NCBI GenBank assembly: GCA_937862565.1
Contig: CALMFT010000032.1
Coordinates: forward strand, 3,175 to 67,174
Reading direction: 5' to 3'
From: an uncultured bacterium
GTDB taxonomy: Bacteria > Patescibacteriota > Gracilibacteria > Absconditabacterales > Absconditicoccaceae
DNA: 64,000 bases
Translations under genes and position numbers: made by a program
Notes under the pieces: model-generated
Databases searched by the model: none
The model's input: the letters and a program-made list of their open reading frames with translations, nothing else
What the model was told of the DNA's origin: nothing
Part shown: positions 1 to 64,000 of the stretch, piece after piece
How positions within the stretch are numbered: the stretch's first letter is position 1
Layout of the letters: each line of letters begins with the position of its first letter

Positions 1-120
1 TTCATAACATCCGGTAAGTTCCACATTTGAACTTGCAGATGCAGAGCTAGGAAGTAAAAGAATTCATAATCAGAAGACTGTTAATGCGCTAGCGATATAC
101 GTTTTGTTTGTAAATTTCAT
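1..120 (-). CDS. secreted/membrane protein, N-terminal fragment (gene runs off the left edge)
   Basis: ATG at 120-118. MKFTNKTYIASALTVF[TGA]L[TGA]ILLLPSSASA looks like a signal peptide when TGA is read as Gly. Confidence 0.4.
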
Positions 121-270
121 AATAAACTACTAATAATTTAAATATTTTTAGTCTAGTATAAAAGTAACTATTTGGAAGTTCATTGCAAATTTGGAGGAAA
201 TTGCAGTCAGAAAGGTGAGAAGAATAGATTTTCGCTTTTTTTCCGTCTTCAAATTATTACTACATAGAAT

Positions 271-2418
271 ATGTTGAATGAAAAATATAACTATTGTTTT
301 CTAGATTTTGAAACTACTTGATTGAGTCACGAAAGAGATGATATTATCCAAGTAGGTTTGATCATTAGCAATCATCAATTGCAAATCCAAGAACATTTCA
401 CGAGCTTTATCAATCCTGGTTATGAAATTGAGAAGTTGAAGACTATTGTTTCCTATACCACAGGAATTACTACGGATCAAATTCAGTCAGGTATAAGTAT
501 TGAAGATTTCAAAAATCAGTTTATTTCTATTACTTCAAAGTTTGAAAAACCTCTCGTGTTTATTGGTCACAATGTAAACTTTGATATCAAATTTCTCAAT
601 AAGTACTTCAATGAAGATTCTACAAATTTTGGAGAGCTTTTCATAGATACTATGGAGCGATCTAAAGTTTTTATTCATTATCCGCCTAGTTTTAGTTTGG
701 ATATTCTCTATCCATTGGTAAGAGAACAGATGGGTGCGGGATATTTTCAATCTTTATCAAAAAAAGTAGATCTTGAAGATATTCAGAATCATGATGCTTT
801 ATCGGATTGCCTGATTTGTATAGGTATTATACAATATTGCCTGACTAAAATTCATTCTGTAACTGCAAGTTTTCCAATTGCTTCCAAGATTCTTGCTAAA
901 GCAGATATGTGGTTCTTAAGCCAAGAACATTATAAGAATGTTAGTACAAGTTCTGAAAAAGTTCCTCTTCTAGATTTTCCTAAAAAGCCACAATCTACCA
1001 ATATTGTAGATACGGAAGGAGATTTTGATAAATTTGCAAATGGCGCTAAACTCTATTATGGTAATCTTCCTCTCGAGCAAGTTATCAGAAAATCAACAGC
1101 TCTCGGGAAAACGATTATCTGTACCAACTCCAATCAAAAGCTCAATATTATAAAAACAAAGGCAAAAATAATGGGATTGCATGATATTAGTTTTATGAAA
1201 GAACAACAACAAGTAGATAAAAATAAACTGAATAAGGTATTTAGCAAGGAGAAGCTGGAACTTACTGAAGTATGGTTTTTCATCAAATATTGTTCTCACA
1301 AACTGCAAGGATTGGGCTTATTGGATCTCAATACGCCTATGGATTATAAGATATACAACTATATTAGAGAGGATGTTAAAACCTCAAAATCTTCATTGAT
1401 TTTAGCGACTCATGCTGCTTTGTTTTCTCTTTTGGAATCATGAGAGTATGCAGATTATAAAATATTATTCTTGGATTATGAACGACGATATACTTCTTAT
1501 ATCAAATATAAAAGTACTGCTTGGGATCCGGTTAATTTTGCAAGAGTATTGGATAACTATCTTTATAAATTTACACACGATGAAGAGAATGAAAAAAGAG
1601 AATTCATTCAAGTGCTGGTAAGTAAGGTAGACATGTTCTGCTCATTTTTATTCATGGAGACGAGTAAATATATTATTAATGTAAAACAAGATGGGCAGGG
1701 GAAGCATGATTTGTGAGTAATAGAAGGAAAAAATGAATTTTCTAAATCTCTGAGTCTGTATGAATCAATTGGAATTTTATTTGAAGAGAAAAAAGAGATT
1801 CTTTCTCCAGAAGATAGCCTGATTATTCACAATCAAATTGAAAAGATAAAACTTACTATCGAAAATATTAGCTATGCTAGACTCAACTCTTATTCAGAAT
1901 ATATTCAATATACCTACGCACTCAGTAATAACTACGTAGATTATAGTGAGTTTATGCATCTATTTAAAGATCGTCATTATTACTTCCTTTCCAATCGGAA
2001 TACTACTTTTGAAATATTGGAAGAAAAATTAGATTCTATACACTGAGAAAACAGATCTGATGTTGTTGAAATAGAGAAAGTGGAAGAACTTGATAGTTTG
2101 AAAATCCAAGATACTGTGTTTATTCTCAATAATAATCCCACCAAAGCAAAGAAGATATTTGAGCATCTGCAAGGAGAACAAACATCCAAAACTCATAAAA
2201 TCCTTGTAGAGAATGTTACAGGCGGAAGAGGCAAAAATATCAGTATGGTTAAAAGAAATAATCAGTGGATATTGGTAGGGGGTTATGATCTGATTCTGCA
2301 ATGTATCCATGAGAGAATATATCCTCAGAAGATTGTGATATTTGAAACTCTGGGTCTATTACACCAACAAATTATTAGTGATATCACCTATCGAATGAAA
2401 CAAGGAGTTCACAATTAA
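271..2418 (+). CDS. DnaQ-like 3'-5' exonuclease domain fused to a DinG-like C-terminal region
   Basis: Track pieces 322-1443, 1471-1716 and 2080-2418 share one frame and join through in-frame TGA. The N-terminus FLDFETT[TGA]LSHERDDIIQVG matches the DEDD ExoI motif DxETTGL, and HDALSD is ExoIII-like. The C-terminal ~450 aa are only weakly helicase-like. Stop TAA at 2416. Confidence 0.55.
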
Positions 2419-2498
2419 TAGTATTTGATTTTTTATCTAGGATGCTTATTATGCCTAATAATTAATCTCTCATCAGTTTATATTTCATATTCCTCACC

Positions 2499-3392
2499 AT
2501 GAAGCTTCAAATAGATATTCCTCAAAGATATGCAAAACAAAGAGCACATACTGCTACTCATATTTTACATAGTGAATTAGCGAGTATTTTTCCTCAAACA
2601 AAACAAGCTGGATCACTCGTGGATGAAGATATGCTAAGATTTGATTTTTACGCAGATAGATTATTGGATGAAGATGAAATAAGCAGAATAGAACAACATA
2701 TCAATGCAGTAATTTATGAAGGACATGAAGTAGTGGTGCAAGAAATGAAAAAAACTGATGCTGAAAATCTAGGAGCAAAGATGTTTTTTGAAGATAAATA
2801 CGGAGACATAGTAAGAGTAGTACAGATCAAAGATTATAAAAGTATTGAATTGTGTGGGGGAACACACGTGGCTAATACCAAAGAAATCTGATCATGTATT
2901 ATAATCTGACAACAGGCGGTGGCAAGTGGTATCAAAAGAATCACAGCATATACAGGGCCAAAATGCTTACTCGCACTTCAAGAAAAAAATGCAGTACTCA
3001 AACTTGTAGCAGACAAACTCTCATGTAAGGTTCCTCAGATTGAGGAAAGAATTGAAAAAACTCTCAAGGAACTCAAAGATAGTAAAATCGCCATTGGCAT
3101 GATTCAAGATAATTTAATAGGAGGTTTAAAATTTGAAAAAATAACTAAAGATAATATCTCATACAATCACTGTATTATAGATTCTGATACACTTTTCGGA
3201 ATCTTCTTGAGTCCAAGTATCCTTACAGAAGCACTCAACAAATCGAAAGCTGATCGACCAGAAAACTATGTCTTCCAGTTTGATCAAGGATTCTTGATTT
3301 ATTCTAACCCAGGACAAGCAAAGCTTTTGATGCAAGCTTTCGGATGGAAGGGTGGTGGTAATGAGCAACTCTGCCAAGGTAAGATCTCATAA
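2499..3392 (+). CDS. stand-alone alanyl-tRNA editing protein (AlaX-L-like: editing plus C-Ala-like domains)
   Basis: HTATHILH and CGGTHV are the HxxxH/CxxxH zinc motifs of the AlaRS/AlaX editing domain. Pieces 2499-2891 and 2919-3392 are in the same frame, joined through TGA at 2889. No aminoacylation domain lies upstream. Confidence 0.65.
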
Positions 3393-4584: not shown

Positions 4585-4597
4585 ATTTTATGGCCCA

Positions 4598-8917: not shown

Positions 8918-10312
8918 ATGACTTCACAATCTTTAAAAACTACTATTGATTCTTCGGACTCAATTCAATATGCAGTATACTTGCAAGGACTTACAGAAGA
9001 AACAGTAAGAAAGATTTCTTCTGATATTGGAGAACCAGAATGGATGCTGGAACACAGACTCAAATGTCTGGATATTTTTCATGCTAAAGAATTGCCTTCA
9101 CGAGGTCCTGATCTCAGTGGATTAGACTTAAATACTATCGTATACTATGCAAGACCAGAAAAAGGATACACAGGATATACAGATTCTCGAGAGAAAGTAC
9201 CACAAGATATCAAAGATAAATTCGCAAGACTGGGCATTCCTGAGGCTGAAAAGAATTATTTAGCATGAGCGGGAGGTCAGTATGATGCGGAAATGGTCTA
9301 TCATAAACTTAAAGAAAAATATGCCGATCAGGGAGTAATTTTTGATGATATGAGTAATGCTTTGAGAGAACATGGAGAATTGGTACGTAAATATTTTATG
9401 AAGTTGGTTCCTGGTACCGATCATAAGTTTGCTGCTCTTCATGGTGCAGTATGGTCAGGAGGAACTTTCATTTATGTTCCCAAAGGAGTGAAGGTGAGTG
9501 AACCTTTACAGGCATATTTCCGTATGAATATGATGGGCGGTGGGCAATTTGAGCATACTCTGATCATTATTGAGGACGAAGCAAGCTGCGATTACATAGA
9601 AGGATGTAGCGCTCCAAAATATGATAATAAGTCTATTCATGCAGGTTTGGTAGAAATATATGTAGCTAAAAACTCAAGAATGAGATATAGCAGTGTAGAA
9701 AATCGAAGTCTCAATACCTACAATCTCAATACTAAGCGCGCTATCGTGGATGATGATAGTGTTATGGAATGGATTGGGGGAAACATGGGTTCAGGAACTA
9801 CGATGTTGTATCCTTGTACTATTCTCAAATGAGCGAGAAGTAAAGCAGATCATATTGGGGTAGCAGTAGCTGCAGCAGGACAAAATCAGGACGTAGGTTC
9901 CAAAATTATTCATATTGGACCCTATTCTAGCTCTACTATTATTTCTAAGTCTATTTCTAAAGATGGAGGAATAAATACCTATCGTGGCATTGTGGATATC
10001 AAATCTACTGCCATAGGGGCGACCAACAGCACGGAGTGCGATGCTTTACTTATGGATGATCGTAGTATTTCTACTACTATACCAGTGATCAAGGTGAACA
10101 ACACTGACTCTACTGTTGCGCACGAAGCTTCAGCAGGTAAAGTAGATGAGCTCATGATATTTTATCTAATGAGCAGAGGAATTAGTGAGGAAAAGGCGCT
10201 TGCTATGATAGTAAACGGCTTCATTTCTCCGGTTATTAAGAAACTCCCTCTAGAATATGCATGAGAATTAAATAAACTGATTGAAATGGAAATGGAATGA
10301 AGTATAGGTTAG
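8918..10312 (+). CDS. sufB: Fe-S cluster assembly protein SufB
   Basis: Pieces 8918-9268, 9293-9832 and 9992-10264 share one frame. YLA[TGA]AGGQYDAEMVYH, KIIHIGPYSSSTIISKSIS and the C-terminus LIEMEME[TGA]SIG* match the SufB consensus (...MEGSVG). Confidence 0.9.
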
Positions 10313-14052: not shown

Positions 14053-14388
14053 CTAGTCTTTCGCGTTTCCGAATACTCCTTGAACCAATCCAAGAATTAC
14101 AGCGAAAATAATAGCATTCCAGATTCCATTTACATCAAATCCTGTTACAAGACTATCAGTCAATAAAATCATCAATACTGTGATAACGAATCCAACTAAA
14201 CCAAAAGTTATGAAGTTAATTGGGAAGCTAAGTACGCGTAATAACATTCCTACTGTAGCATTAACCAATGACAATACGAGTCCAGCAATAATAGCTGTTC
14301 GGATACCATCTACCACAACTCCAGGAACAATTCGTGATGCTACTGCGAATAAGATACCTCCAATGAGAACGTTCAACAAGAATTTCAT
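14053..14388 (-). CDS. DUF360 / phage-holin-4_2 family small membrane protein
   Basis: 111 aa with four hydrophobic helices. The pattern GGILFAVASRIVPGVVVDG...ITFGLVGFVI matches DUF360. True TAG stop. Confidence 0.55.
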   Translation of the reverse strand: MKFLLNVLIGGILFAVASRIVPGVVVDGIRTAIIAGLVLSLVNATVGMLLRVLSFPINFITFGLVGFVITVLMILLTDSLVTGFDVNGIWNAIIFAVILGLVQGVFGNAKD

Positions 14389-14493: not shown

Positions 14494-15390
14494 TTAATTC
14501 ATAAGATCATGAATTCCTTTGAGGTATTTATCATCCACGTGAGTATAAATTTGGGTAGTGGTAATACTACTGTGACCTAACAAAGTCTGTACTGACCTAA
14601 TGTCTGCGCCTTTCTTGATGAGTGTGGTTGCAAAACTATGCCTGAGAGTATGAGGTGTTACTTTCTTATCAATAGATTGCAACTTTGCATAATGCCTTAC
14701 CATATCTTCGATAGCATTGCGTGAAAGTGGCTTATTACCTGCAAATGATTTCTGATTATTAGAAATTCCAGAGAAGATGTACTCCCCTTCTCAGATTCTG
14801 ATAGCCAACCAAGCTTGTAAGGCTTCCAAAGCAGATTTAGTCATGAATACAGCTCTGAGTTTTCTACCTTTACCTACTACTGAGAATTGATTTGAATCTA
14901 CTTGAATGTCTGTAAGTTTGAGGTTACAAAGCTCTGAAACTCTCAGTCAAGAACCGTAAAGTATCTGTATGATGGCATTATCTCTAATTCTTTTTTTAGC
15001 AGCTTTTTCTCGTTCATCAGGAGCTTGGAGAATCTTTTCGATTTCTTCATCATTGAGAAAATGAACCTCTCTAGGAGGGGTTTTACTAATTTCTAGCTTA
15101 TCAGGCGAAATACAAGGAATATCATGTCTGATACAGAACTTCAAGAAAGCTCTGATAGCGATAATATGATAGTTGATAGTCTTTATATTGAGATGAAGAT
15201 CATCAATGAGATGTTTACGATAGTCCATAATCTGCATAGGATGTATACTATTTACATCTATATCTCCAACAAAACCTAAAAACCTTCTCAACCACAAGCT
15301 ATAATTGCTAATGGTATTGGGACTTGCATTCTTGGTATTTCCCAAATAAGAAATATACAGTTCAATTAACTTTGCAAGGGTTGTACTCAT
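14494..15390 (-). CDS. tyrosine site-specific recombinase, XerC/XerD-like
   Basis: Pieces 14947-15390 and 14494-14703 share a frame. YGS[TGA]LRVSEL (box I Arg), HTLRHSFAT and [15 protein letters not shown] (catalytic Tyr) are present. Confidence 0.85.
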
Positions 15391-15417: not shown

Positions 15418-17220
15418 CTAGGTAAGTTTTTGATGTGTATAACTTGTTTTACCTTTGAGGGCATATGGAACGATAATATGTCTTTTACTATTATAATCCG
15501 ATTGAACCCAGAGAATATCTCCAATTTTTACACCTGCTTTATTAAACCATTTATGTAAACCTTGTTGTTTCATTACTCTCCAGAACCATTCTTCAGCCAA
15601 AACCTTTCACCAAGGCAATTGATAACCCAATCTAGAAAGATCTTTCTCGTATACTCTAAACAACTTCTTGGGAGCTATTACTTCTTGTACTTCATCCTCA
15701 AGATCCAACTGCTCATCGTCTTCCATAATCAGATTATATTCTTTTTGAATCTCTTCACTTGTCCAATCCTGGATTTGATATCCCATCTCCAAAAGAAGAT
15801 TACGAATTTCCTTAGTATCTACCGTTCCTATCATCTCAATAGACCTCTCTATTTGTTTATTCTCTGCTGAAACTGGATCAAAATGTAGTATATAAGCTGA
15901 AATAATCTGAAGTTTATTGTACATGAACTGTAATAATGGTTTTTTGAATTGATCAAAGATTATACTGTAAACAAATACTTGTTCTGCAATAACATCATCA
16001 GGGATAGTATTTTTAATTTTAAATTTTGAACCTACAAATGTTTTTGAAATATGCTCTATAAGCTGTTTTTTGTATTCGTTGATAATTTCTGCATCTACAA
16101 TCTCTCCTTCCATCACCTCATCGACTTTATTGATAATTCGTACAATCCCCTTTTGAAGCAATAATCTACCTTCTTGGTCGTGAATATTGAGTACAATGCT
16201 TTTTTCTTTATTGCTTTCATGCGTTTTTACTTCCATTTCAAAATTGATATCCTCAATCTCAAAACCGAATTCTTCAGATCATATAAATCTTGTTTGTATA
16301 TAGGTTAAGATTTCATTTCGTAGTTTCCCAAATTCCAAAATACCCTGATCCCATCTTGAGATATCTACTACAAAAGCAAAAAGTCTTGCCTTGAGTACAT
16401 GTCTCAAAAACTCGTTCCCAAGTCCTTTTCCTTCACTTGCTCACTCCACCAATCCAGGAATATCAATAATATTCCAGCTCTGATCATTGTAGATTACAGA
16501 TCACAAATTTGGTACCAAGGTCGTAAAATGATACTCTGCTACCTTAGCTTTGGAGTTGGATATAGAATTGATGATTGAAGACTTACCTACCGATGGCACA
16601 CCTATCAAACCCACATCTGCCAAGAGTTGAAGCTCGATTTCGATTGTTTTCTTTTGTCCAGGCTCTCCTCCGAGACTAAAATCAGGAAATTGAACAGTAG
16701 AATTTTTGAAATGCATATTCCCTGCTCCTCCTATTCCTCCCTTACAGATTACAAACTGCTCACCATGTTCTGTAAAATGATAGACAATTTTACTTGTTTT
16801 TACTTCTGGCGTAACAAGATTTTCTTCCTCACTTTCGACTTCGTCAGTATCTTGAAGCAATCCATTATGATCAAATTCATAGTGAGTTTCCATTTCTTCC
16901 TCATCCCCTTCTGATACAACATGCACTATCTTAATAATACTTCCTACAGGAACAGGAATAACTAAATCTTCTGCAGACTTTCCGTATTTATCTGCTGATT
17001 CACCAGGAAACCCATGATGTGCTGTTCGTTCTTTTTGAAATCTGAGATGGAGTAAGGTGTTGTAGTTACTATCAGCTTGGAAAATTACTGATCCACCATG
17101 TCCACCGTTACCTCCATTTGGTCCTCCATAAGGCACTCATGCTTCACGTCTTGCACTTGTGGCACCGTCTCATCATTTTCATGATATGCAAATAATCTGA
17201 ACTTTATCGTAAAATTTCAT
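15418..17220 (-). CDS. obg: GTPase Obg/CgtA with unusual insertions (600 aa)
   Basis: Pieces 16501-17136, 15607-16236 and 15418-15600 share one frame. The N-terminus MKFYDKVQIICIS[TGA]K[TGA][TGA]DGATSARREA[TGA]VPYGGPNGGNGGHGG gives the Obg glycine-rich fold only if TGA is Gly. G1 is GVPSVGKS, G3 is DIPGLVEGA and G4 is NKVD. The C-terminus AGVKIGDILWV is OCT-like. Confidence 0.85.
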
Positions 17221-24257: not shown

Positions 24258-25352
24258 CTATCCTCCCAAACTTGCACTGTCAATTACTGATCCGATCATC
24301 CCAAATACTGAAACTACGATCATCATAATCACGAAACCTACGAATATAATAAGGATTGGCTCGATAACCTTACCAAGATCATTGAGTCCTTTTTCTAAAT
24401 CTTGTTGGTACAGTGTAACGATGTTGGTAATAGCAGCCGGAAGATTAGCTGTACTTTCACCCACCTTGAGGAGAAGCAACGAATCTGCAGGTATAATATT
24501 GGTATGGAAGGACATATTCTGATACATGGTTTCACCCTTCTTCACACCTTTGAGAACATCATCAATCATATCCTGATATTGTGGCACTTTCATAATAGTT
24601 TTCATAAACTGAAGAACTTCTACATAGTTCATTCCAGATTGGAGAAGAAGCCTCATATAACGGAAAAATCTAATCATATGATAGTATTTTACCATCTTTC
24701 CAAAAGCAGGAGCATCGAGAATAAACTCATATCGCTTTTTCTTTCCAAAATCTGTTGAGAAAAAGAGAACAGCAGCAACTACAAAGAGCATAAATGTTAT
24801 GATGATTCATTGAGCATTATTACTTATGAAGTTGGTCATACTCATGATAGCTTGTGTATACCAAGGGATTACTACGTCAAAATCTTCTACAAGACTAAAA
24901 ATTTGTGGAAGTGCATATATAAACAGGAAAAACACTGCTACAATTGATAAAGTGAGAAGAATTACTGGATAAATCATTGCTGAAGTATACTTACCTTTGA
25001 TAGTACTTAAGAATTCATACTCTTCTGAAAGAAATCTCAATACACTCACTACCTCACCACTACCCTCTCCTGATCTGATAACATTCACATCACTATCATC
25101 AAAATACTGAGGATGTCTCATCATACCACGACTCAAACTTTCACCGGCCTTTAGATTATCATATAAGTTAGCTGATACCTTTTTTACTGCAAAGTTTGGG
25201 GAAGTATCTCCAATAGTCTGTATTGCTTCTACGATACTCACTCCACCATCCAGTAAATAAGCCAATTCTTTGAAGAAGAAAATCTTATCCTTGGTACTAA
25301 AGCTGGATACGTCGCGAGAATTGATAAATCTGAGAATAATCTGATCAAACAT
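24258..25352 (-). CDS. pilC: type IV pilus / T2SS platform protein PilC/GspF
   Basis: Pieces 24807-25352 and 24258-24791 share a frame. Two T2SSF repeats are present (FFFKELAYLLDGGVSIVEAI and RFFRYMRLLLQSGMNYVEVL), and the C-terminus is EPILIIFVGFVIMMIVVSVFGMI. Confidence 0.85.
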
Positions 25353-35481: not shown

Positions 35482-35514
35482 AGCACTAATGAGGAGTAAT
35501 AAAAATATCACTCA

Positions 35515-35543
35515 ATTATACCCAACAAGCTTGAAAAAGTCAA
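35515..35543 (-). promoter_or_regulatory. sigma-70-like promoter for pilB (TTGACT-17 nt-TATAAT on the minus strand)
   Basis: -35 at 35543-35538 and -10 at 35520-35515, with a 17-nt spacer. Confidence 0.5.
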
Positions 35544-35623
35544 ATACTTGTGGGCGGAATTGCTTGATTTTGAAATTGAAGAGTTTATAATAAAAAAATA
35601 TATTCTTGAGCACTCATTTTTTC

Positions 35624-37018
35624 ATGAAATCCCAAACTACCAATGATTTTCTCAATTCTTTGGGCTTTACTCCAGCGCCTTTTTTTCATGAATATTGAAG
35701 TATAAATGAAGTAATTGCTAGCTGCATGGACCAAAAAGTAAAAAATGATCTCGATAATCTTGATATAGAATTTGATGGATTGGTTATCAAAGTAAATGAT
35801 AATAATCTGAGAGAATTACTGGGTTCTACTAATCATCATCCTAGACGAGCAATTGCCTACAAATATCCTGCTAAACAAGCTAGAACAATCATAAATACCA
35901 TAGAACGACAGGTAGGAAGAACAGGGATTCTTACTCCTGTAGCCAATATTCAGCCTGTTTCACTTTCTGGAGTAACTATTTCAAGAGTAGCTCTCCACAA
36001 TCCAGATTTCATCAGAGAGAAGGATATTCACATTGGTGATAATGTCATCATCCAAAGATCAGGGGAAGTAATTCCTTACATTGTGTGCACAATACCTGAA
36101 TTGCGCGATGGTAGTGAGACTGAAGTCACTAAACCCGAATTTTGCCCTGTATGTAAAGAATCAATACATGAACATATTGCCGAATCAGGTAATACAAGCT
36201 ATTATTGTCTCAATATTATATGTCCAGCAAGTGTAAAAGAGAAAATCAAACACTTCGTAAGTCGTGATATGATGGATATAGAAGGAATGGGAGATGCGAT
36301 TATTGATGCAATGGTAGATCATCAGATTATCAGTACTTATGCAGACCTATACCTCCTTCCTCAACCTCAAATCAGGATGGTAGTAAAAAATATTCCTGGG
36401 ATGGGAGATAAAAAAATAGACTGAATTATCAAAGGATTAGAAAATTCCAAAACAAAAGATCTTCACAAAATAATCTACGCTCTTGGTATCCCTCAAGTGG
36501 GAGAAAAAACCGCTAAGATACTGGTAGATCATATCAAAAAAGACTCCAATTTTCATACTCGAGAGATAAATCCACTTGATAAACTTATACATTATCTAAG
36601 TGATCAAGAATTTCTTAGCTCAATACATTCTGTTTGACCTCAAACTATAGAGAACATGATTGACTGGATGAAACATCAAGGAAATATTGAGATTCTGAAA
36701 AAACTTGAGACTTATGGAGTGCAGTTTGGGAACTTTGAAGAAGAGAGAGTTGGCTCTCAAAGACTACAATATCTCAGATTTGCAGTAAGCGGAATATTTC
36801 CAATAAGCAGAGATCAGATTATTTCTACTTTCGTAAAACAAGGTGCTGTATACAATCCAAATATCACCAAAAATACCAATCTGGTTATCGCTGGACTCAA
36901 TCCTTCTAGCAAGATACAAAAAGCTCAAAAGCAGGATATAGAAATATCAGATGATCTCAAAGCTCTCGAATCAAGGTATGAAGTAGATTTTGGGATAGAA
37001 TCAGTGGGATTGTTTTAG
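35624..37018 (+). CDS. ligA: NAD-dependent DNA ligase LigA, N-terminally truncated (lacks domain Ia and the KxDG adenylation motif)
   Basis: Pieces 35726-36424 and 36656-37018 share a frame. The protein starts near motif IV (EFDGLVIKVN) and carries PR[CGA]AIAYKYP, the OB fold, a 4-Cys Zn finger (CPVC...C..IC), HhH and BRCT. An in-frame TAA at 35588 blocks any further N-terminal extension, and pilB occupies the upstream DNA. Confidence 0.75.
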
Positions 37019-37045: not shown

Positions 37046-38905
37046 ATGTTAGAAAACACTTTTTCACCTACTCATCAGATTATCATTAAACTTTATGAAT
37101 TAGAAAATCCTAATTTGGATGATTTATTGGAAATCAGAAAAGCAGTTTCTGGTAAAGCAGGACTTGCACATATGCCTGGTAATGCAGACATTCTCAAGAC
37201 TTATTTTCAACTCGTAGCGCAAGAAAAAATCATAAGAAATAAACAAATTGAGCTTACACTGCGCAAAAGAGCAATCAGATCTCAGTCAGGAATTGTACCA
37301 GTACAAGTACTTACTAAGCCTTTTTGGTGTCCATGAGAATGTATTTTCTGCCCAAATGATGCGACTATGCCAAAATCGTATATCAACACAGAACCTGGTG
37401 CGCAAAGAGCTTTACTCAACAATTTTGATCCTTATAAGCAGGTTTTCAATAGACTTTTGAGTTTGACTTTGACAGGACATGAGACTGATAAGATAGAAAT
37501 GATTGTATTGGGAGGAACTCGAGATGTATATCCTAAGCAGTATAAAATTGACTTTGTGAAAGGACTGTATGATGCTTGTAATGCTTTCGAAAAGTTTTTC
37601 GAATGATATATTGAAGGAAGTATCAAAGTAGAAAATACCAAGAGTATCGAATATGAAACACTAGATATAGAATTTCCTAAGTCGATTGCTGAGTCCATTT
37701 CGCTCAATGAGAAAGCAATGTGTAGAATAATCTGATTGACTATAGAGACGAGACCTGAATATGTAACTGATGAAAACTGTCAGTTGTGGAGAGATTTGGG
37801 AGTAACGAGAATAGAGATGGGAATACAAAATATGTTTGATGATGTACTTGATGCCAACAAAAGAGGTCATAGCGTAGAGCAATGTCGTGAGGCTATGTTT
37901 AAGCTCAGACAGTATGGTTTCAAGATTTCTGTACATCTCATGCCTGGACTGTATAAATCAAACAAACAAAAAGATATTGATACTTTCCGCATTGCATTTG
38001 AAGATCCTGCTTTCCGTCCTGATGAACTCAAGTTTTACCCTACTGCTATTATTCCTAACACGGAACTTTTCAACCTCTACAAAAGATGAGAATATAAAGC
38101 ACTCACGCTCCAAGAAAATAAAGACATCATTAAAGAAGTACTCGTGAATTTTATACCACCCTACACCAGAATCAAAAGACTTATTCGTGATATTCCAGCT
38201 GAAGAAACAGTTGCTACAGACTATGTAACGAATCTCAGACAACTCGTAGAAAACGAGCTTACGAAAGAATATCAAGCCAAAACAGATCAGGAAAGATCTA
38301 CATATTACCAAAAAATGTACAATGATCTGACTTTTGTAAGTAACGAAGAAGAAATGTTAGAAAAAATAAATCACTTCACTCAGAATTCTTCAGATTATAA
38401 TTCATTTATAACTCTTGTGCCAAAAGATACTCAATTAGATTTTACAAGTACAAGAAATTTTATTTGTTTTGATACCAGAAGTAGAGAGATTAGAAATCAA
38501 GCGAAAAGTGTTGTATTGATTCCAGTTATCCGTATCTATAATAGTACGAACGGTGTGCAGTTATTTATGAGTTTTGAAGATGAACTCGGTTATCTGTACT
38601 GATTTACAAGACTACAACTTGGTAGTTCTGAGCTCAATAGTACGTACGCAGGACTCGGAGAAAACTCAGCTATCATAAGGGAACTTCATGTGTATGGACA
38701 AGTTGCTAAGATTAAAACTTCTGACGAAGAAGATAAAACTCAGCATCAAGGAATAGGAACTCAGCTCATGGAATTATCTTCCAAAATTGCCACTCATTGT
38801 GGCTATGATAAACTTTCAGTAATTAGCGGAGTAGGAGTAAGAAAATATTATGAGAAACTAGGTTACCATTTGGTATGAACATATCTCGTGAAGAATTTAA
38901 CTTAA
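37046..38905 (+). CDS. bacterial Elp3-like radical-SAM/GNAT tRNA-modification enzyme
   Basis: Five track pieces (37046, 37367, 37736, 38144 and 38690) share one frame. The radical-SAM cluster motif is CP[TGA]ECIFCP. TIETRPEY...GVTRIEMGIQ is present, and the C-terminal GNAT region is HQGIGTQLME. Confidence 0.75.
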
Positions 38906-38956: not shown

Positions 38957-40360
38957 ATGGCAAGTATTAAAAAAGCTAGTAATAAAAAGGTAGAAAGCCT
39001 CATCTCCAATGCCAATAGTTATTCAGAACAAATCGTTCTCAGAGGAGTAAATACGAACAATCTGAATAATATCGATATCACTCTTCCCAAAAATAAAATA
39101 ATCACTATTACGGGAGTAAGTGGTAGTGGAAAATCTTCACTCGCGTTTGATACTATCTACAAAGAAGGTCAGTTTCGTTATATTGAATCTTTGAGTAGTT
39201 ACCTCAGACAATTTTTCAACCTTGGAGAAAAACCAGACATTGAATATAGTAGTGGTTTGAGTCCAGCAATCGCTATTGAACAAAATAAGAGAGTGGCAAA
39301 TATCAGATCGACTGTAGGAACACTTACAGAAATCGACGACTACCTCAGATTATTATATGCTAAATTGGGTAAAGCATATTGCTACAATTGTGGAGATGAA
39401 ATCAAAGCACAGTCTGTAGACAGTATTATAGAACAGATTATAGCACTTTTCAATCAAGATAAAGTATATGTTATTTCTGAAATTGATACCTTTACAGAAG
39501 CTCCCGAGTTTCTCAAGTTTATTAAAAAAAATAGAAATAAAATGGATAAAGGAGATGGATTTACCAGATTCTTAGTGCTCTTCGACAATGAAGAAAACAC
39601 TCAATGCGTGGAATATTTCTATCTAGAATCACCGAACATTCCTGAAAAATACCTTCCTTATACGGTATATGGAATTTATGATAGAATTACTTTGGTGGAC
39701 GAAAATATCGAAAGACTCAAGGAAGATATTGTAAAAATGCTCAACGAACATAGCAAGTTTGGACTCTATCATACGTCTGCAAATGATAATATTGATGATA
39801 GTCTGAGTTTATCTGTGGGTAAAGACGTACACAATTCTGACCATACCATCAAGTGGTTTACAGATAAGATTTTCTGTCCAAAATGTAATATCACCTATCC
39901 AGAATTTACGACTCAACATTTCTCAAGCAATAGAACTGAATGAGCTTGTACAGTCTGTCATGGTCTGGGAGAGATTCTTGATGTTCAGCTTGAACAAGTG
40001 CTTGACCCTACTCAGCCACTTCTCAAAGCAATCATCCCTTGGCAGAACAATACCCTCGGTCAACAAATTCTCAGTAAGTTTGCTTCAAAATATGATATTG
40101 ATCCCAATAAAGTACGACACACGCTTCCCGCATATTTTAAAGAAATCCTCATCAATGGAGACAAAGAGCTTATGAAGGTAGGCGCCATGGGAAAACGACA
40201 TAGTTTTTACTACAATGGTTTGGTGGATATGCTTACGACTCAGTACAACAAAGGTATCCTCGGTACGGAATTTCAATCACTGTTCGGTATGAAACAATGT
40301 GACGCTTGTCATGGAGCAAAACTCAAACCTGAAAGTCTGAGTGTGAAAATAGAGGTATAG
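38957..40360 (+). CDS. uvrA: excinuclease ABC subunit A, N-terminal half only (truncated at about 467 aa)
   Basis: GVNTNNLNNIDITLPKNKIITITGVSGSGKSSLAFDTIY (Walker A of site I), LSPAIAIEQ, and Zn modules CYNCGD...CPKC and [TGA]ACTVCHGLGE are present. It ends ...CDACHGAKLKPESLSVKIEV followed by TAG at 40358. The Walker B of site I and all of NBD-II are absent, and a convergent gene follows. Confidence 0.75.
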
Positions 40361-49200: not shown

Positions 49201-52200
49201 ATTTACTGTAGGATCAAAGTTGAAAATTTGATTTTCTGTCCCGCTTAATAAATCATCAACCGCAACTGGTTTACAAACCACAAGCACATCTACTGTGCCT
49301 GTATTGGACAAAAAGGTTCAATCAGTCACTCGGTACTTGAAAGTATCCAGACCACAAAATCAAGAATTTGGAGTATATTCAATACCGGTTCAAATTACTG
49401 TCAAAGTTCAGCCACTTCAAGCTATAAATCAAGAAATAGATAAGGTATCCCCAACATTGTAATCAAAATCATTATTTAATACTTTTATTATGGAGCTTTG
49501 AGTTGATCAAATTGTTACATTGTCATTTATGGCGACAGGAGCAACATTAACAAGAGCACATGATTTAATGCTATTGCTTGTCGTGAATCCTGTAACTAAA
49601 ACTGGTGTTGGTCTATTGATAAGGGTGCCGTCACCAATTTCTCCGTAAGTATTTCTTCCTCGGCAAGCCAATTGTCAGTCAGAGGTTACGCCACAAGTAT
49701 GAAGAGTTCCTACGCTTATCTTAGAAAAACGAAGAGTAGTATTTACAGAGACAAGACCAGTGCTACTCAATGCCGTGCCACCTCCAAGCTGATTATTGGT
49801 TCATAATCCTCGACAATATGCTTTTCAAGTTTTTGTAAGAGCACAGGTATAATTATTTCATGCCTGTATATCCATAATGCCTGTTAAACCTAGAACAGAA
49901 GTAGATACTGGACTTGTTTGAGTAATAGTATTACCATTTCATAAAGCTCCATTGGTATTTGCTCATCGACATTTTGCGGTGCCATTGTTTAGCAATACAC
50001 AACTATGTGTGTTTCATACAGATAAAGAAATTGCATTGTTTATTCCAGTGACCTGCGTAGGTAAAGCATTGGATGCGGTTACAGGAGTTCCATCACCTCT
50101 CATTCAGTTAGCATCACTACCCTGACATCGAACAGTGCCACTAAAAGTAAGAGCACACGCAAAAGCTGAACCAGCTTGGACTTTTTTTATCATTCCAATT
50201 CAAGTGAAAACGTCTATAGGTATTCATGTATCGGCTGCTGTATTCTGTCTAATTATATAGTTTGCTCCTTCTCACCAGCATTTTGCAGCACCATTGTTAA
50301 AAATACCACAAAAAGTCTGAGATAATGAGCTAGAAGAAAGATCAAAAATATTGTTCCCAGATACTATACCTACAGGTGTTGACTTTACAACATTGGTGTT
50401 ATCTCAAAGCTGTCTGTTAGCATTATATCACCAAGACTTACCTATTCCACTATTCGAAATGGCAACACTAGAACGATAATTCATAGCTATTTCAAAAATT
50501 CATGACGTCAGACCAATTGTCTGAGTAGGTACCGATTTGGATGTAGATCAGCCATCTCCGATAGCAGGATATGCTGCAGTTTCATATCATCGACATTTTG
50601 TACTTCAAGATGAAGTAATTGCACAAGTATTATATTGTGCGAGACTTACGCTATCGATTTCTTTACAGTCATTGTAAGTGTTTTCACAAGGAACATATAC
50701 CTGTATTGATCCTGTGTTAGATATAAATCAGCTTTTATAAAGTATTTTATAATTAAAATTGTCAGTGCCACAGAATCAAATATTTGGAGTGTAAGTAATT
50801 AATCATTGATTGTTGTAAGTAATGTTACCATTTGAAGGTCATACAATTCAGGTGAAAATAATATTTCCAGAAATAGCTGATATATTACCTGATTTCACAA
50901 TCTGCAAGGTTGTTGCTGTGTTTTGATGAGTATAGATATAATCATTAAAAACATAACCAGATAATATAGGCGGAGTATAGTTAGTATTTCTAGCCCAAAG
51001 ATTAAACGGTCTAATTTGAGCTTGGTTAAATTTTAAAGTTGCAGATGATCATGGAATCCAATAAGCTCAGTTCGCATTACCACAGAGTTGGACTATAGCA
51101 TTATTGAGTCTCGGTACTGCAGTGTTACAGGTTGCTCATACAAAACTAGTCATAATTGCTGCTGCGCCAGTCCATGCAGCATTATCCAAAAGTCATCTAT
51201 GTACTGGTGCATAATTACGAAAGTTTGTCAGAACAGTGGGATTAGTAGTCGTTACAGACCATCAACTATTTGTCTCATTTATCATGAGTTGACTGAGATC
51301 AAATTGACTAGTCACTCAAGATGATATTATTTTATCAGATTGCAAAGTCATTCATGTGACTATACCATATACAACCCCGGTCCCATTTAAATTATTCTCT
51401 GAAGCAACCAATAGCCATCATCCTGGAATTACTATACTATCAAAACTCTTACCGCTAAGATTGAAATAATATGTTCAAGTTGTTGTTACTCAAGAAGCAG
51501 CATACAGTGAGGTAAATGGATTTCCTAAACTACCATCTCCAAAGAATGAAGGAAAGTATGAAAAAGTAAAAGTAGAAGCGCCACAGGTATAAAATGTAAT
51601 TTTATGATTCAATACTTTTACACTATCTATCTGGTCTACTGAGCTTACTGATCAATTTTGATTACAGTTGGCTTCAGGATTGGCAGTTAATCAAACTATA
51701 CCAGGATCTGATTCTCACTCATGTTGTACTTTTAGATCTACAACCGCTCCTTCCATACCTTCATCAACATCAAAATTGATTATTACTGGTTTTGAGAATA
51801 TAAGATGTTCACCCTCAATACCAAATTCAAAACTATAAGAAAACGCACTATCAATTTGATCAGAGTTTAGTTTAATTAATACATCTTTTGTTAATTTTAA
51901 TGCTTTCAAATCAACTGCTTCATCCAATTGAGATTCTTCAATATTAATACCAAATTTTTCAAGCTCAAGTTTATTTGTACTTTTGGTATCAATTTCTAAA
52001 TCTCAAGGTAATGTTATAGATAAATGTTCATCATCGCTAGACAATTCAATTTCCTTATTTGTATGAAGCGAATCAATATCATTTTTTTGAACTGATCAAT
52101 CTTTAGAATACTTTATTAAATCTCACTTAATTTGTTTAATAAACTGCTTACTATCTATTTTCACCTTATATTCTCAGATTATTTTTAATTGTTCATTATT

Positions 52201-54754: not shown

Positions 54755-56146
54755 ATGAAAAGACATTCTTGCAAATCTAATCGATGAGAAAATGAAGTAC
54801 TTGGTGAGGTAGATTTAACTTCTCCAGAAGAACTTATTTCGATTCTCAAAAAATCTAAAAAGGCATTTACAATATGGTCGACAGTTAGTACATGAGAAAG
54901 AGTTCAGACTATTTCATCTTTTTTGGAAATATACAAGGATAATGCTTCAAAATTGGCGATAAATATCTCCAAAGAAATAGGAAAACCATTGTCGCAAGCC
55001 ATGAGTGATATAGATTATGATATTGCATACTTACAACGACATATTGATAATGCAGAAAAAATACTCGACTGTGAGATAGTATTTGAAGATGATACGAGCA
55101 AACATATCCAGTATTTTGAGCCAAAAGGAGTTGCAGCAGTCATTTCTCCACGAAATTTTCCAAGTTCTCAATTTATATGGCAGGTCATTCCTCCACTCTT
55201 AGCTGGTAACACTATTATTTATAAACCTGCTTCCGCTTGTATGCGATCAGCTAAGTTGATAAGTGATTTATTGATATCAGTTTTACCGACCAATACATTT
55301 CAATTGGTACTCGGAGATTCTGAATTGGGTAATAGTCTGGTGCAATTGGAAACAGATATGACAATATTTACAGGATCAAGCGATGTTGGTCACAAAATAT
55401 CTAACATAAACGGAAACTCCATGAAACCTTCTTATCTAGAGCTATGAGGAAACGCTCCTGGTATAGTATTATCTGACGCAATCATAGATAATCAGATGAT
55501 GAATACACTTGATCAGTTTAGAATACAGCATTCAGGACAAATCTGCGATGGGCTGAAAAGACTGTTTGTCCATAGATCAAGATATCATGAGCTTATAGAT
55601 AAGATTAAAATTACATTTTCTGATTATAATATAGGAAATCCTTTAGATAAGAATACTCATATTGGATGCCTCATCAATACTACTGCTTATGATAAGATTC
55701 AAAAATCTTTGGATGATGTCAGTATGCAGTGAGTAGATATAATATCCTTATGAAAATATGATAATACTGTTGGTCCATTTATTCCTTTTGCATTATTATT
55801 AAATCCTGAAAATAATGATGTCTTGAGTAAAAGTGTATTTATGATGGAGGAAATATTTGCTCCTATTCTTCCTATCATTGCGTTTGACACTATAGAAGAG
55901 GCTATACAAATGGCAAATGATAGTAAATTTGGTTTGGGATGATATGTTCGATGATCAGATAATCAGATTATTAATTCACTTTGCAAACAACTACGTACAT
56001 GAAATATCAATATAAATAACACAAATTATGTATTACCTCAGATACCTTTTGGCGGATACACGAGGATGTCAGGTAATTTTAGAGAGCATGGAAAGACAGG
56101 ATTGAGAGATTATACAGAAACCAAAATCCTTAGTATGCCAAAATAA
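54755..56146 (+). CDS. NAD(P)-dependent aldehyde dehydrogenase
   Basis: Pieces 54923-55447 and 55496-55732 share a frame. ISP[CGA]NFP (consensus PWNFP), LEL[TGA]GNAP (ELGGNAP), the catalytic GQICDG, EEIFAPIL and FGLG[TGA]YV are present. Confidence 0.85.
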
Positions 56147-57506: not shown

Positions 57507-58016
57507 ATGCAAACCAAGATTATCACCGTAAATGATAAGATGCAAACTAACTATATTTATGAATGCACCGAGACCATGGGTAAAAACTTTGATGAAAGGT
57601 TCCACCCCGATCTTAGCCCTGCACAGATGCTGGAAGCAGGCGTGTTTTGAGGTAAATACATGACAGATTGCCAGAATGAATTTCCAGCAGATCGGTTTAC
57701 CAATGCTAAACTTTCCCCACTCAAGAAAAACCCCAAGCTCAATTTCTTTGGGGTAAATGCTTCCATGTCTCTTCGTGATTGGAAGAAAAAATGACGAATA
57801 TATGCAGATGATCCCAGAGGTCGATTTCAATGGTATTGTAGATATTATATGGGTCGTAGAATACCTGATGAAGATAATAGACAGATAAAAAGACGATGAA
57901 ATATGAGAAGGCATACGATGGCTATCATGAAAAACTGCCATCCAATGGATTGGGATTGCAGAAAAAGACAAAGACAGGCAGTCTTACATTGGGGATATGA
58001 TTCTAGAAAGATGTAA
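57507..58016 (+). CDS. conserved hypothetical protein (169 aa; FGGKYMTDC / DPRGWFQWYCRYY family)
   Basis: MLEAGVF[TGA]GKYMTDC...FPAD[CGG]F...KK[TGA][CGA]IYADDPRG[CGA]FQWYCRYYMGRR...IKR[CGA]. From memory, it resembles a widespread uncharacterised family that has Trp at the bracketed CGA/CGG positions. Confidence 0.55.
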
Positions 58017-58955
58017 TTACTTAATCCACTCTTTCAAAGATTCTCTGATTTTCTTTATCTTAGGGTCAATCACAATCTGACAATAAGGTTTGCTGCTATT
58101 CTGATTATAAAAATCTTGATGATATCCTTCTGCTATCCAGAAATTTTCAGCAGCTTTGATGTGAGTAACAATAGCCTCTTCATAGGTATCTTTATTGAGT
58201 TGAGTTACTTTTGTATCAATAGTTTTCTTTTGTTCAGGAGTGGTATAGAAAATCACTGATCTATATTGTTCACCGCTATCACCGCCCTGTTTATCCATAC
58301 TTGTAGGATCGTGACTAATGAAAAATCCATCCAATAAGATATCTAATGGAATAATCTGAGGATTGTAAGTGACTTGAACTACTTCTATATGTCCAGAAAC
58401 TCCAGTACTCACCTGCTCATAACTAGGATATTCTCTTTTCCCGCCCATATATCCAGATTTTACCTCTATTACTCCTAGAAATTGTTGGAATACTGCTTCA
58501 ATACACCAGAAACATCCACCTCAAAAGTAAATAGTTTCACGTGGAGCGTGTAGATCTTGAGCAATTGGGTTAGCTTCAAAAAACTCTTTTTCCTTTTCTT
58601 GAGCTACAAATCTCATGCTCAGAGAGTTTACACAATGACGTGTATTTTGTTCCGTCATGCGTTCTCCCACAAACACGTGTCCAAGATGACCTTCACAGTT
58701 GTGGCAAGTAATCTCCGTTCTATGACCATCTTTATCCGTAGTCCAATCTACTGCTCCAGGGATTGCTTGATCAAAGCTTGGTCGCCCACATCCACTGTCA
58801 AACTTGCTTCCACTATTATACAAGGGAGCATTACATCTACGACATATGAAAATTCCTTCTCTTTTTTCATTCAAGAGTTCTCCTGTTCCTGCACGTTCTG
58901 TACCTTTATCACGAATAATATGTTCTTCTTCCTCTGTGAGTTTATTTCGAGTCAT
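58017..58955 (-). CDS. msrAB: bifunctional methionine sulfoxide reductase MsrB-MsrA fusion
   Basis: Pieces 58521-58955 (MsrB: CxxC...CG[CGA]PSF...RHCVNS) and 58017-58448 (MsrA: [TGA]GGCFWCIE...GYHQDFY) share a frame, joined by TGA at 58521. Confidence 0.85.
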
Positions 58956-61532: not shown

Positions 61533-63217
61533 TCTTTAGTTAAATATCTGAATATTTTTTCTTTATTATTTCTTTTTGGGGCATCTTCCAAAACCCGTAC
61601 AAACGCTTTTTTGATTAATACTCATACTTCAGGAGAAGGAGATAATTCGAAGCGTTTCATAATATCGTCACCATTCACAAGCATCTTATCGATAGTAAAC
61701 TGACCTTCAGAATTTTTGAGATCATCAAGAATCTCGTACAGAGCATTTACATTATCAATTTGAGGTTTTTGAACTGGATTGTAGTGACCAGCGCGGTCCC
61801 CTCTCGTAATATCAAATAGATTGAACACTTGCTCATAGCCTACTTCAGAATATAGTTCTCTTATTTTTTTCTTCCAAGAATCTGATTTTGACATCAATAT
61901 TTCTCCAGGCTTCATATGATTTTTGATATACCACTTTATTTCAGAAATTTCTTTATTTGTAAATCCTATTCTCAATAAATCTTCTTCCGCAAGATCCTGG
62001 CCACAGTTAACATGGTTGAGCCAACCTGAATAGATAAAAGGTCTTTCTTCTTCTCCGAGATTAAAACTATGAGAGTGATATTGTTCTAATTTACCACAAT
62101 CGTGATAGAGCATAGCCATTCTCACGAGGTAGTTTTCATTGATGGTCTGTAAGAAATTGAGAGCCAACAAACTATGAGTGTAGACATCAAATGGATGATA
62201 TCTCACAGGTTGAGGTAGATATTTTATAGCATGAATTGCTGGAAACAAAGACTTGAGTAAGTTGAGTTCATCAAGAATTGCGATATAAGCAAATGGATTT
62301 GGTCCAGAAAATACTTTTTTGAGTTCATCGTGAATACGTTCTTTGCTGAGATTTTTTACAAGAAAATAATGTTTTTTCATACTCTTCCAAGTATTTTTTT
62401 CGTAATCAAAATCAGTATCTAGAAGACTATCAAAGTTTAGCGTATTTTGAAATCTTACTGCTCTGAGTATTCTGAGAGCATCTTCAGTAAATCTGAGATC
62501 AGGCTTGCCTACTGCTCTAATCTTACCATCTACGATATCTTGAATTCATAAATAAGGATCTCGAATGATTCAGATTATTTTTTCTAATTCTATTTTTTGT
62601 TCTTTACAAAATTTCTCAAATTCATTTTTATCTAAGTTACCTTTTGGTAATAAGATATCAATAACTTGATGATCTTGCAGAAGAAGAATACAGTCTATCA
62701 CTATAAATTTATGATCTTTGAGATATTGTAAGATGTATTCATCAGTATGTGTATTTTTTGAAATTACTTTTTTGTCAGATTGTTGTAATTGAGTATAATA
62801 TAGAGCATTAATGGTAAAATCTCTTCTTCCTGCGTCTAATACAAGACTATCAGACCGTTGTATCTCATCCGGATGACGCGAATCAGTATAAGAACCTTCT
62901 TCACGGAAAGGAGTAATCTCATAGTAGAGTGAGCTTTCAGGGTTCTTCTTAACAATAGTAATCGTACCAAATTTTTCTGTACGAAACAATGAAACATCTT
63001 CTAGTTTATCTTTCTTGACTTTGGCGTTGAGAGTACTTCGTAGATCGTCTGGATCAGCACACATAGTGAGGTCTACGTCTATAATATCTTTATTTTTTCA
63101 GATTATACAATCTCTTACTACACCTCCAACAATGAAAAAATCCTTCAATCCCATGGTTTCTTCTAGAAAATGGATATGAGAGTCTAATTGGGTAAGTGTG
63201 ATGAAATTAAGATGCAT
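61529..63217 (-). CDS. cca: CCA-adding enzyme / tRNA nucleotidyltransferase with HD domain
   Basis: Pieces 63098-63313, 62570-63064 and 61622-62380 share one frame. FIVGGVVRD, GRRDFTINALYY, FTEDALRILRAVRF and HD (LYHDCGK) are present. The start is uncertain (ATG at 63217 or the Met of MGLKDF near 63165). Confidence 0.8.
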
Positions 63218-63767
63218 GATTGAGGGTTTGAGTAATTTCGATTCCGTACTGTTTTTGTTTCTCTTCTCGACGTTCTTTGAGTACAGGTTGTTTAAGATAA
63301 TCTGTAAATTCACTTTCCATCATATGCTGAGTAGTTCTATCTTTGAGCGCTGGGTGTTCCAAATCACTACCATAACTCTTATATAATGCCATCCCTCTAT
63401 AAGTTTTATATCGTTTTATAATCTGATATTGTTCTTCTTTTGTAAAGTCTTCATTTTCAAGAAAATATAATTCACAGGCTGCTTTATATATTTTAAGTTT
63501 TTCAAATTCGTTATTGATAGGCCTATTATATTCATTTACTATCTTATTTACTCCATATATTACTTTCATAATTTTTGTAAAATATTCAGGAGAGTTTTTA
63601 TATTCAAAATATCCTAATACTTTCATAAGATCAAGAATATATTTTCTTTCTTCATAGTCTCGTTTTTTAAAGTTCTCATGTGTTACTTTATTATTAGTTT
63701 GATTCCTCAATAATATATTTTCTGCTTTTTTCTGAGTTTCTTCTCGTGATTGATTCAGTATGTCCAT
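63207..63767 (-). CDS. hypothetical protein (186 aa)
   Basis: Intact ORF with a TAA stop that overlaps the cca start by 11 nt. Confidence 0.45.
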   Translation of the reverse strand: MDILNQSREETQKKAENILLRNQTNNKVTHENFKKRDYEERKYILDLMKVLGYFEYKNSPEYFTKIMKVIYGVNKIVNEYNRPINNEFEKLKIYKAACELYFLENEDFTKEEQYQIIKRYKTYRGMALYKSYGSDLEHPALKDRTTQHMMESEFTDYLKQPVLKERREEKQKQYGIEITQTLNHAS

Positions 63768-63800
63768 AATGCAATAATTAGGAAATAAAGTACTACTCTC

Positions 63801-64000
63801 CTAGGATAAGTGTGACAATGCATGAGCTACTTGTTCTTTCAATTCAGGTCTTTTTCGAATATCATTGCAAATAGTATCAATACATCTTTTCATATTTATC
63901 TTATCATCAAACTGATAAGACGAATACGTCAATATATTACTGATATAATGATTTAAATTAGCACCATATTTATACAATGAATCTCTCCAGCAATCTTTAT
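63801..64000 (-). CDS. hypothetical protein, C-terminal fragment (gene enters from the right edge)
   Basis: The frame is open to TAG at 63801 (...KRPELKEQVAHALSHLS*). Confidence 0.35.
   Translation of the reverse strand, partial: KDCWRDSLYKYGANLNHYISNILTYSSYQFDDKINMKRCIDTICNDIRKRPELKEQVAHALSHLS

Follow-up and report, generated by a model that had tools for sequence, protein, structure and literature searches.

We analysed a 64,000-nt stretch of DNA from an uncultured bacterium (contig C32:3175-67174, hereafter the window) and found that it is very probably translated with the Absconditabacterales genome code. In this code, as read here from sequence comparison, UGA encodes glycine (Gly), CGA and, on thinner evidence, CGG encode tryptophan (Trp), and UAA and UAG are stops. 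The genome assembly comprises 1.27 Mb in 46 contigs with 33% GC. The original prediction had called this a table-25 genome. Its reading of TGA as Gly and of TAA and TAG as stops stands, while the remaining 61 codons are not all standard: CGA falls on Trp, and so does CGG in fewer columns. The code of the window has been described before, and the window brings no new principle.

Reading frames of the window are interrupted by TGA alone

Reading the window with NCBI translation table 11 gave 69 open reading frames (ORFs) that reach 100 aa or more, with a maximum of 677 aa. With table 25, these pieces joined into full-length genes, among them GyrA (851 aa), SufB (464 aa), and an ORF as long as 2296 aa. 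We measured coverage as the union of open frames with 150 or more codons across the window. Coverage rose from 38.8% under table 11 to 90.5% when only TGA was opened, compared with 42.5% when TAG was opened instead and 52.1% when TAA was opened. A standard-code relative reached 89.9% under table 11.

The recoded reading of the window yielded 45 genes. In-frame TGA occurred in 42 of them, giving 289 TGA codons that account for 23% of the Gly codons; the window also contained 101 CGA, 7 CGG, and 142 TGG codons. Genome-wide, TGA was used about 143 times per 10,000 codons. Genes ended in TAA (36/45) or TAG (9/45), and none ended in TGA. In the homology-confirmed gyrA, prfA, elp3, and sufB genes of the genome, and in the gene for a highly conserved protein that we refer to as P0001, the internal stops were exclusively TGA, never TAA or TAG. 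Since coverage jumped only when TGA was opened, TGA lay within 42 of 45 genes, and all genes ended in TAA or TAG, the breakup of frames is real, systematic, and specific to TGA.

These results bear out the claim that the ORF track is fragmented by TGA, as re-calling with table 25 fuses the pieces, and that TAA and TAG still terminate, in keeping with the presence of release factor 1 (RF1). The nine TGA codons cited as examples (319, 9266, 10298, 14947, 17170, 17173, 17179, 27637, and 55445) are all in frame, with correct coordinates and contexts.

TGA columns align to glycine

As a reference, we used the complete, 962-kb standard-code genome of a member of the same class (G027). The TAA/TAG-delimited frames of the whole genome were aligned to the ORFs of G027 after each TGA had been replaced by X. 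The alignment comprised 346 high-scoring segment pairs with a mean identity of 36%. The 937 TGA columns contained Gly in 367 cases (39.2%), arginine (Arg) in 27, Cys in 26, and Trp in 9 (1.0%). Compared with a Gly background of 6.9%, this enrichment was highly significant (P ~1e-173), and the Gly model for TGA was ahead of the next amino acid by ~470 nats. In the same alignment, the Gly share at GGN columns was 56-59%; when the codons were masked alike, it was 54.7% for GGT and 40.5% for TGA.

We also performed a leave-one-out check, in which 58 of the 61 sense codons were given their standard amino acid, CGG among them (n=34, before masking and contig filtering). CGA was flagged, and the misses at TGG and ATG were artefacts of single-codon amino acids.

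Deep alignments agreed with TGA as a Gly sense codon. In SufB, compared across 15 standard-code relatives, the TGA sites at 9266 and 9830 were Gly in 15/15 and the site at 10298 was Gly in 12/15. In 120 homologues of P0001, the two conserved TGA columns (columns 48 and 96) were Gly in 116-117. The same assignment held across the order, where these two Gly columns were encoded by TGA 23 times and by GGN 11 times. The description of the cited sites as invariant Gly was nevertheless a slight overstatement: seven of the nine examples align to Gly and 9266 is Gly in all 15 relatives, but 10298 is Gly in only 12 of them, and Escherichia coli SufB has a gap at 9266 and His at 10298. The E. coli protein (PDB 5AWF) was also considered as the yardstick for SufB. 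Two of the four TGA sites are not Gly in it, and it was set aside as too distant in comparison with the 15 relatives of the same class.

CGA and CGG columns align to tryptophan

In the alignment to G027, the 384 CGA columns contained Trp in 18.8%, Phe in 11.7%, Leu in 10.7%, and Arg in 6.8%. This profile matched that of TGG columns (Trp 35%, Phe 12.5%, Leu 7%), whereas the columns of CGT, CGC, AGA, and AGG were 42-52% Arg. The Trp share at CGA was far above the background of 0.95% (P ~1e-68), and among the models for CGA, Trp was favoured over Tyr by 107 nats and over Arg by far more. If CGA were Arg-like, the chance of observing at most 26 Arg in 384 columns would be P ~1e-62. When the codons were masked alike, Trp made up 29.4% of TGG columns and 19.4% of CGA columns, the latter rising to 21.1% on the core contigs. 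For CGG, 5 of the 25 columns on the core contigs were Trp (P ~4e-6); Arg, which was outside the six commonest residues, accounted for no more than one. Usage was 38.6 CGA and 3.5 CGG per 10,000 aligned codons.

Individual protein families showed the same assignment. CGA was found at invariant Trp positions in SufB, aldehyde dehydrogenase, MsrB, P0001, and the RCC1 repeats, and CGG in P0001. The SufB sites at 9101, 9188, and 9704 were Trp in 14-15 of the 15 standard-code relatives. Among the 120 P0001 homologues, the CGG column (57693) was Trp in 119 and the three CGA columns were Trp in 117-118. We then examined the seven invariant Trp columns of P0001 in 17 genomes of the order, which were encoded by CGA 74 times, TGG 38 times, CGG 6 times, and TTT once, and never by AGA or CGT.

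The seven RCC1-like repeats of the 2296-aa protein allow both reassignments to be tested on paralogues within a single gene. Their signature Trp was encoded by CGA in five repeats and by TGG in two, and the Gly that follows it in six repeats was encoded by TGA in four and by GGA in two. These comparisons indicate that CGA is clearly decoded as Trp and that CGG, with its thinner evidence, is probably decoded as Trp too.

tRNA genes, release factors, and synthetases

ARAGORN detected two tRNA(UCA) genes in the genome, together with tRNA-Gly(UCC), tRNA-Gly(GCC), and one tRNA-Trp(CCA), which is a gene apart from tRNA(UCA). Both tRNA(UCA) genes (contigs C14 and C33) carry G1:C72, C2:G71, G3:C70, and U73, the bacterial Gly identity set, which is shared by the two ordinary tRNA-Gly. 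Their acceptor stem is a normal one of 7 bp, their variable arm is short, and they match tRNA rather than tRNA-Sec in Rfam. The chromosomal tRNA(UCA) (C14:88695-88768) is conserved in the order: 56 of 61 genomes have it, at 85-100% identity, and the anticodon was UCA in 30/30 loci examined.

The tRNA(UCG) (C38:16079-16152) and tRNA(CCG) (C32:106183-106257) carry A1:U72, G73, and U20, like tRNA-Trp(CCA), whereas the Arg-type tRNA(GCG), tRNA(UCU), and tRNA(CCU) carry A20 and A73. The UCG anticodon is retained in relatives. Among the tRNA genes of the genome, no Arg-type tRNA with the anticodon UCG, CCG, or ACG was found.

A single gene with a PCRF domain was present in the genome, with PET and GGQ motifs. 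It passes the prfA model (424.5 against a cut-off of 423.25) and fails the prfB model (229.6 against 370 bits), so the only class-I release factor of the genome is RF1 and release factor 2 (RF2) is absent. RF2 was likewise absent from all 11 sampled genomes of the same family (f1), single-contig genomes included. Across the class, the RF2 cut-off was passed in 93 of 121 genomes. The families lacking RF2 in every sampled genome (f1, f22, f25, f29, and f30) were exactly those with in-frame TGA in gyrA, elp3, or sufB. With RF1 as the sole class-I release factor, UAA and UAG are read as stops and no RF2 competes at UGA. The original prediction had named a tRNA-Gly with a UCA anticodon and the loss of RF2 as checks, and both were found.

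In the mechanism that we propose, low GC would first have made UGA, CGA, and CGG rare, and their capture would have come afterwards. Glycyl-tRNA synthetase would charge tRNA(UCA) despite A36, and a single tryptophanyl-tRNA synthetase would charge both tRNA(UCG) and tRNA(CCG). Modification of U34 may bar tRNA-Gly(UCA) from UGG and tRNA-Trp(UCG) from CGU and CGC. A second tryptophanyl-tRNA synthetase dedicated to the new tRNAs was considered and rejected, as the genome holds only one trpS (C20:74243-75217).

Alternative readings of the three codons

Several observations weigh against the proposed code. The CGG assignment draws on 25-36 columns in the genome, and before the odd contigs were removed, Arg was the top residue at CGG (19%, n=36). 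Conservation is also weaker at the reassigned codons: Gly makes up 40% of TGA columns and 55-60% of GGN columns, and Trp makes up 19-21% of CGA columns and 29% of TGG columns. This dilution of the signal probably arises because captured codons lie at less constrained sites. The SufB TGA at 10262 corresponds to Val in 15/15 standard-code relatives. The charging of tRNA(UCA), tRNA(UCG), and tRNA(CCG) is read from identity elements. Finally, the assembly is 93% complete; the absence of RF2 therefore leans mainly on its absence in all relatives.

The thin and initially Arg-rich evidence at CGG would suit a code of pure table 25, in which TGA as Gly, itself fully supported, is the only change and CGA and CGG remain Arg. 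We consider this improbable. The Arg share at CGA columns is far below that of the true Arg codons, CGA or CGG occupies invariant Trp positions in five protein families, and tRNA(UCG) and tRNA(CCG) lack A20 and carry G73 and A1:U72. Moreover, the Arg-aligned CGA and CGG codons cluster mostly on a few contigs (C10, C46, C30, and one on C14), and C10 and C46 also show weak Gly at TGA. Those Arg-aligned codons were also considered as a sign of decoding ambiguity; they are mostly gone on the core contigs, and we took them as heterogeneity of the bin. Ambiguous or transitional decoding, with UGA, CGA, or CGG read as two amino acids (Gly/stop, Trp/Arg) by near-cognate tRNAs at appreciable rates, is about as improbable as pure table 25. 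It could account for the lower conservation of TGA and CGA columns and for the leftover 6.8% Arg at CGA, and tRNAs with U34 may wobble onto UGG or CGU/CGC, as was also raised in PMC8629427. Against it, the codons stand at critical invariant Gly and Trp residues (the ELGG and PWNFP motifs of aldehyde dehydrogenase, GCGWPSF of MsrB, and the Gly-rich motif of Obg), no RF2 competes at UGA, no Arg-type tRNA with the anticodon UCG, CCG, or ACG was found, and most CGA-aligned Arg vanishes on the core contigs.

Two further readings concern TGA and are far less probable still. A code of the table 4 type, with TGA as Trp, is used by Mycoplasmatales and a number of insect endosymbionts; such lineages share RF2 loss and low GC with the genome, and the database copy of one window protein was translated with TGA as Trp. 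As the original prediction had stated, table 4 does not fit: Trp occupied only 9 of 937 TGA columns against 367 for Gly (P ~1e-122 if TGA were TGG-like), the acceptor of tRNA(UCA) is of the Gly type (U73, G1:C72), and the anticodon of tRNA-Trp is CCA. Equally remote is the reading that TGA is not a general sense codon and marks selenocysteine sites, pseudogenes, sequencing errors, or programmed readthrough, although ARAGORN labels the tRNA(UCA) genes 'tRNA-SeC'. The 289 TGA codons spread over 42/45 genes, the genome-wide usage, frames broken by TGA and never by TAA or TAG, and the same pattern in every genome of five related families all speak against it. Cys was found at only 26 of 937 TGA columns, the structure of the tRNA and its Rfam match are not those of tRNA-Sec, and in MsrA the TGA lies on Gly, off the catalytic Cys.

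Genes of the window

The features of the window are listed in Table 1.

Table 1. Genes and repeats of the window, with reassigned codons and supporting matches
Feature	Position	Strand	Matches and reassigned codons
RNase_T/DnaQ-like exonuclease	271-2418	+	Pfam RNase_T; TGA 319-321 in DFETT[G]L, aligned to Gly in G027
SufB	8918-10312	+	TIGR01980, 641 bits; TGA 9266, 9830, 10262, 10298; CGA 9101, 9188, 9704
Xer-type tyrosine recombinase	14494-15390	-	TGA 14947-14949 in YGS[G]LRVSEL, aligned to Gly in G027
Obg	15418-17220	-	Obg family matches; TGA 17170, 17173, 17179 in Gly-rich N-terminal S[G]K[G][G]DG
PilC-like T2SSF protein	24258-25352	-	
GyrA	27217-29772	-	851 aa with TGA 27637 and 29755 read through; 27637 on Gly in G027; CGA 29311, 27901
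PilB-like T2SSE ATPase	33916-35790	-	
LigA match	35606-37018	+	Profile positions 232-659 of 664 only; overlaps opposite-strand pilB-like gene
Elp3-type tRNA U34 modification enzyme	37046-38905	+	6 TGA; 1 CGA (37520, aligned to Trp)
467-aa ORF	38957-40360	+	UvrA DNA-binding domain the only match
Surface-type protein, 2296 aa	46216-53106	-	RCC1 repeats, Big_9 and cadherin-like domains; 111 TGA, 9 CGA
Seven RCC1-like repeats	49654-50592	-	Pfam RCC1, RCC1_2, WD40_RLD
Aldehyde dehydrogenase	54755-56146	+	Alignment to PDB 8yen; TGA 55445 at EL[G]GN; CGA 55151 at P[W]NFP, 55949 at GGxV[W]G
P0001, 169 aa, highly conserved, without assigned function	57507-58016	+	TGA 57648, 57792, 57897; CGG 57693; CGA 57795, 57822, 57894
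MsrB-MsrA fusion	58017-58955	-	TGA 58521 on Gly of GG[G]CFW, off the catalytic Cys of the MsrA part; CGA 58782 at GCG[W]PSF

The three TGA codons of Obg (17170-17181) all align to Gly in G027, where the motif reads AGKGGDG. The Obg ORF is 600 aa long; its Obg and GTPase domains stop near residue 310 and are followed by a Trp-rich extension of ~260 aa without a family match. In the 2296-aa surface-type protein, TGA makes up 48% of Gly codons, compared with ~13% in conserved aligned genes, which suggests a build-up of captured codons in surface proteins under weak constraint. The Elp3-type enzyme was considered as a wobble restrictor linked to recoding. Its cut-off was passed in 102 of 121 genomes of the class, recoded or not, and the candidate was dropped for lack of association.

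The LigA-matching ORF lacks the adenylation domain, and both this ORF and the neighbouring 467-aa ORF with the UvrA domain look truncated or split. The PilC-like and PilB-like proteins are type IV pilus/type II secretion system (T2SS) components. A holin-family membrane protein (Phage_holin_4_2) is also encoded within the window, at 14053-14388 on the minus strand.

Taxonomic placement and spread of the code

The order to which the Genome Taxonomy Database assigns the genome consists of a single family, f1, and its relatives are named Candidatus Absconditabacterales (70% GyrA identity) or Absconditicoccaceae. At the SufB Trp columns, members of f1 mix TGG, CGA, and CGG, whereas the TGA-recoded families f22 and f29 use TGG only. 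These two families therefore fit table 25 better, as TGG alone stands at their tested Trp columns. The original prediction had pointed to Absconditabacteria (SR1) or Gracilibacteria. It named the right group, which the CGA/CGG reassignment and the named relatives narrow to Absconditabacterales (SR1) alone, a placement that draws on codon usage, the named relatives, and the order assignment.

Recoding of TGA is common to at least five sampled families of the class (f1, f22, f25, f29, and f30). In f25, the two genomes (G030 and G043) are without RF2 and carry 20-27 in-frame TGA codons in elp3.

Phage contigs and heterogeneity of the bin

The genome bin is heterogeneous. Contig C33 (66,494 bp, outside the window) is a phage contig encoding a P22/SU10-type portal, a terminase, a tail collar protein, a Gp10 baseplate protein, and a helicase. 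Its composition is off that of the core genome, and sense TGA reaches 212 per 10,000 codons compared with 143 in the host. At the end of C33 lies an array of seven tRNA genes, the last of which is the second tRNA(UCA). This gene is divergent in sequence, has the complete Gly identity set, encodes its CCA, and looks like a phage-borne recoding tRNA. Contig C44 (3,997 bp) carries 14 tRNA genes in ~1.7 kb, including tRNA-Ile(UAU), with a GC content of 39% that is unlike the core genome, and it may be a continuation of the C33 array. A scan of IMG/VR with the portal protein of C33, aimed at CGA usage, found no relatives of this phage.

Contig C23 (37,199 bp), alongside which C22 is listed, is a standard-code phage contig encoding major head and tail proteins. 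Its seven large ORFs are without in-frame TGA, their stops are mostly TAA or TAG, and their CGA codons stand in Arg-like contexts. The possibility that C23 reflects a second code within the organism was rejected; it is most likely mis-binned or a code-11-compatible phage. Should C23 infect this host, Trp would wrongly be inserted at its CGA codons. A 2023 mBio paper (PMC10746230) described both code-25 phages and TGA-free 'code-11-compatible' phages of SR1/Gracilibacteria hosts; CGA and phage-borne tRNA-Gly go unmentioned in it. We tentatively raise the possibility, which we rate as somewhat unlikely, that phages infecting recoded hosts bring along a recoding tRNA of their own; as a corollary, CGA and CGG as Trp would be a real translation barrier to TGA-free phages such as C23. 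A further contig, C41 (8,371 bp, 23% GC), uses TGA ~491 times per 10,000 codons against ~99 for all GGN, so that TGA makes up ~83% of its Gly codons.

Comparison with known codes

UGA as Gly, the reassignment of NCBI table 25, has been known since Campbell et al. 2013 and Rinke et al. 2013 (cited in PMC8629427 and PMC13695967). The code of Absconditabacteria, with UGA as Gly and CGA and CGG as Trp, was reported by Shulgina & Eddy 2021 (eLife 10:e71402, PMC8629427), and the genome studied here shares its three reassignments. The agreement extends to the translation apparatus: both have a tRNA-Gly(UCA) with G1:C72, C2:G71, G3:C70, and U73, a tRNA(UCG) and tRNA(CCG) with G73 and without A20, and a tRNA-Arg(GCG) for CGU and CGC with no tRNA(ACG). 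Both are also low in GC, with AGA as the chief Arg codon, CGG rare, and CGA commoner. No difference in quality was seen between the two. CGA usage was 38.6 per 10,000 codons here and <37 per 10,000 in PMC8629427, which puts the genome at the top of the published range or just over it; the two measures differ in kind, as ours comes from BLAST to one relative and theirs from Pfam-aligned codons.

Table 25 (Candidate Division SR1 and Gracilibacteria) has in common with the genome UGA as Gly, UAA and UAG as stops, the loss of RF2, and tRNA-Gly(UCA), but it keeps CGA and CGG as Arg, which the genome does not. Table 4 resembles the code of the genome in that a UGA stop was captured once RF2 had been lost, in a small genome rich in AT; UGA is Trp there and Gly here, where the tRNA(UCA) is of the Gly type. 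CGG is Trp in Anaerococcus and RFN20 Bacilli and Gln in Peptacetobacter (PMC8629427). In these lineages, as here, a rare GC-rich Arg codon was reassigned in low-GC genomes. However, theirs concerns CGG only, without tRNA(UCG), whereas CGA is the chief reassigned codon here and the tRNA(UCG) appears to be of the Trp type.

Consequences for annotation

The choice of translation table determines what is annotated on this contig. Table 11 leaves predictions badly fragmented, with 39% of the window in long frames compared with 91%, and table 4 turns each TGA-encoded Gly into Trp. With table 25, ~108 codons of the window (101 CGA and 7 CGG), or ~0.6% of its codons, would be mistranslated to Arg, because tRNA(UCG) and tRNA(CCG) have Trp identity features. 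The affected sites are often invariant, functionally important Trp residues.

Such errors are present in public records. We compared the database homologues P0003, P0004, and P0092 of P0001. In the database copy of P0001, the two conserved TGA columns read Trp and the four CGA/CGG columns all read Arg. The P0001 records of two relatives have Arg at invariant Trp columns, and one of them, an NCBI Absconditicoccaceae record, does so at three columns. Given the code, Arg at Trp columns and Trp at Gly columns in the records of this clade are annotation errors.

Taken together, the window adds a clean case in which the capture of a stop codon goes along with the reassignment of sense codons. In practice, invariant Trp sites appear as Arg in public protein records of the clade.

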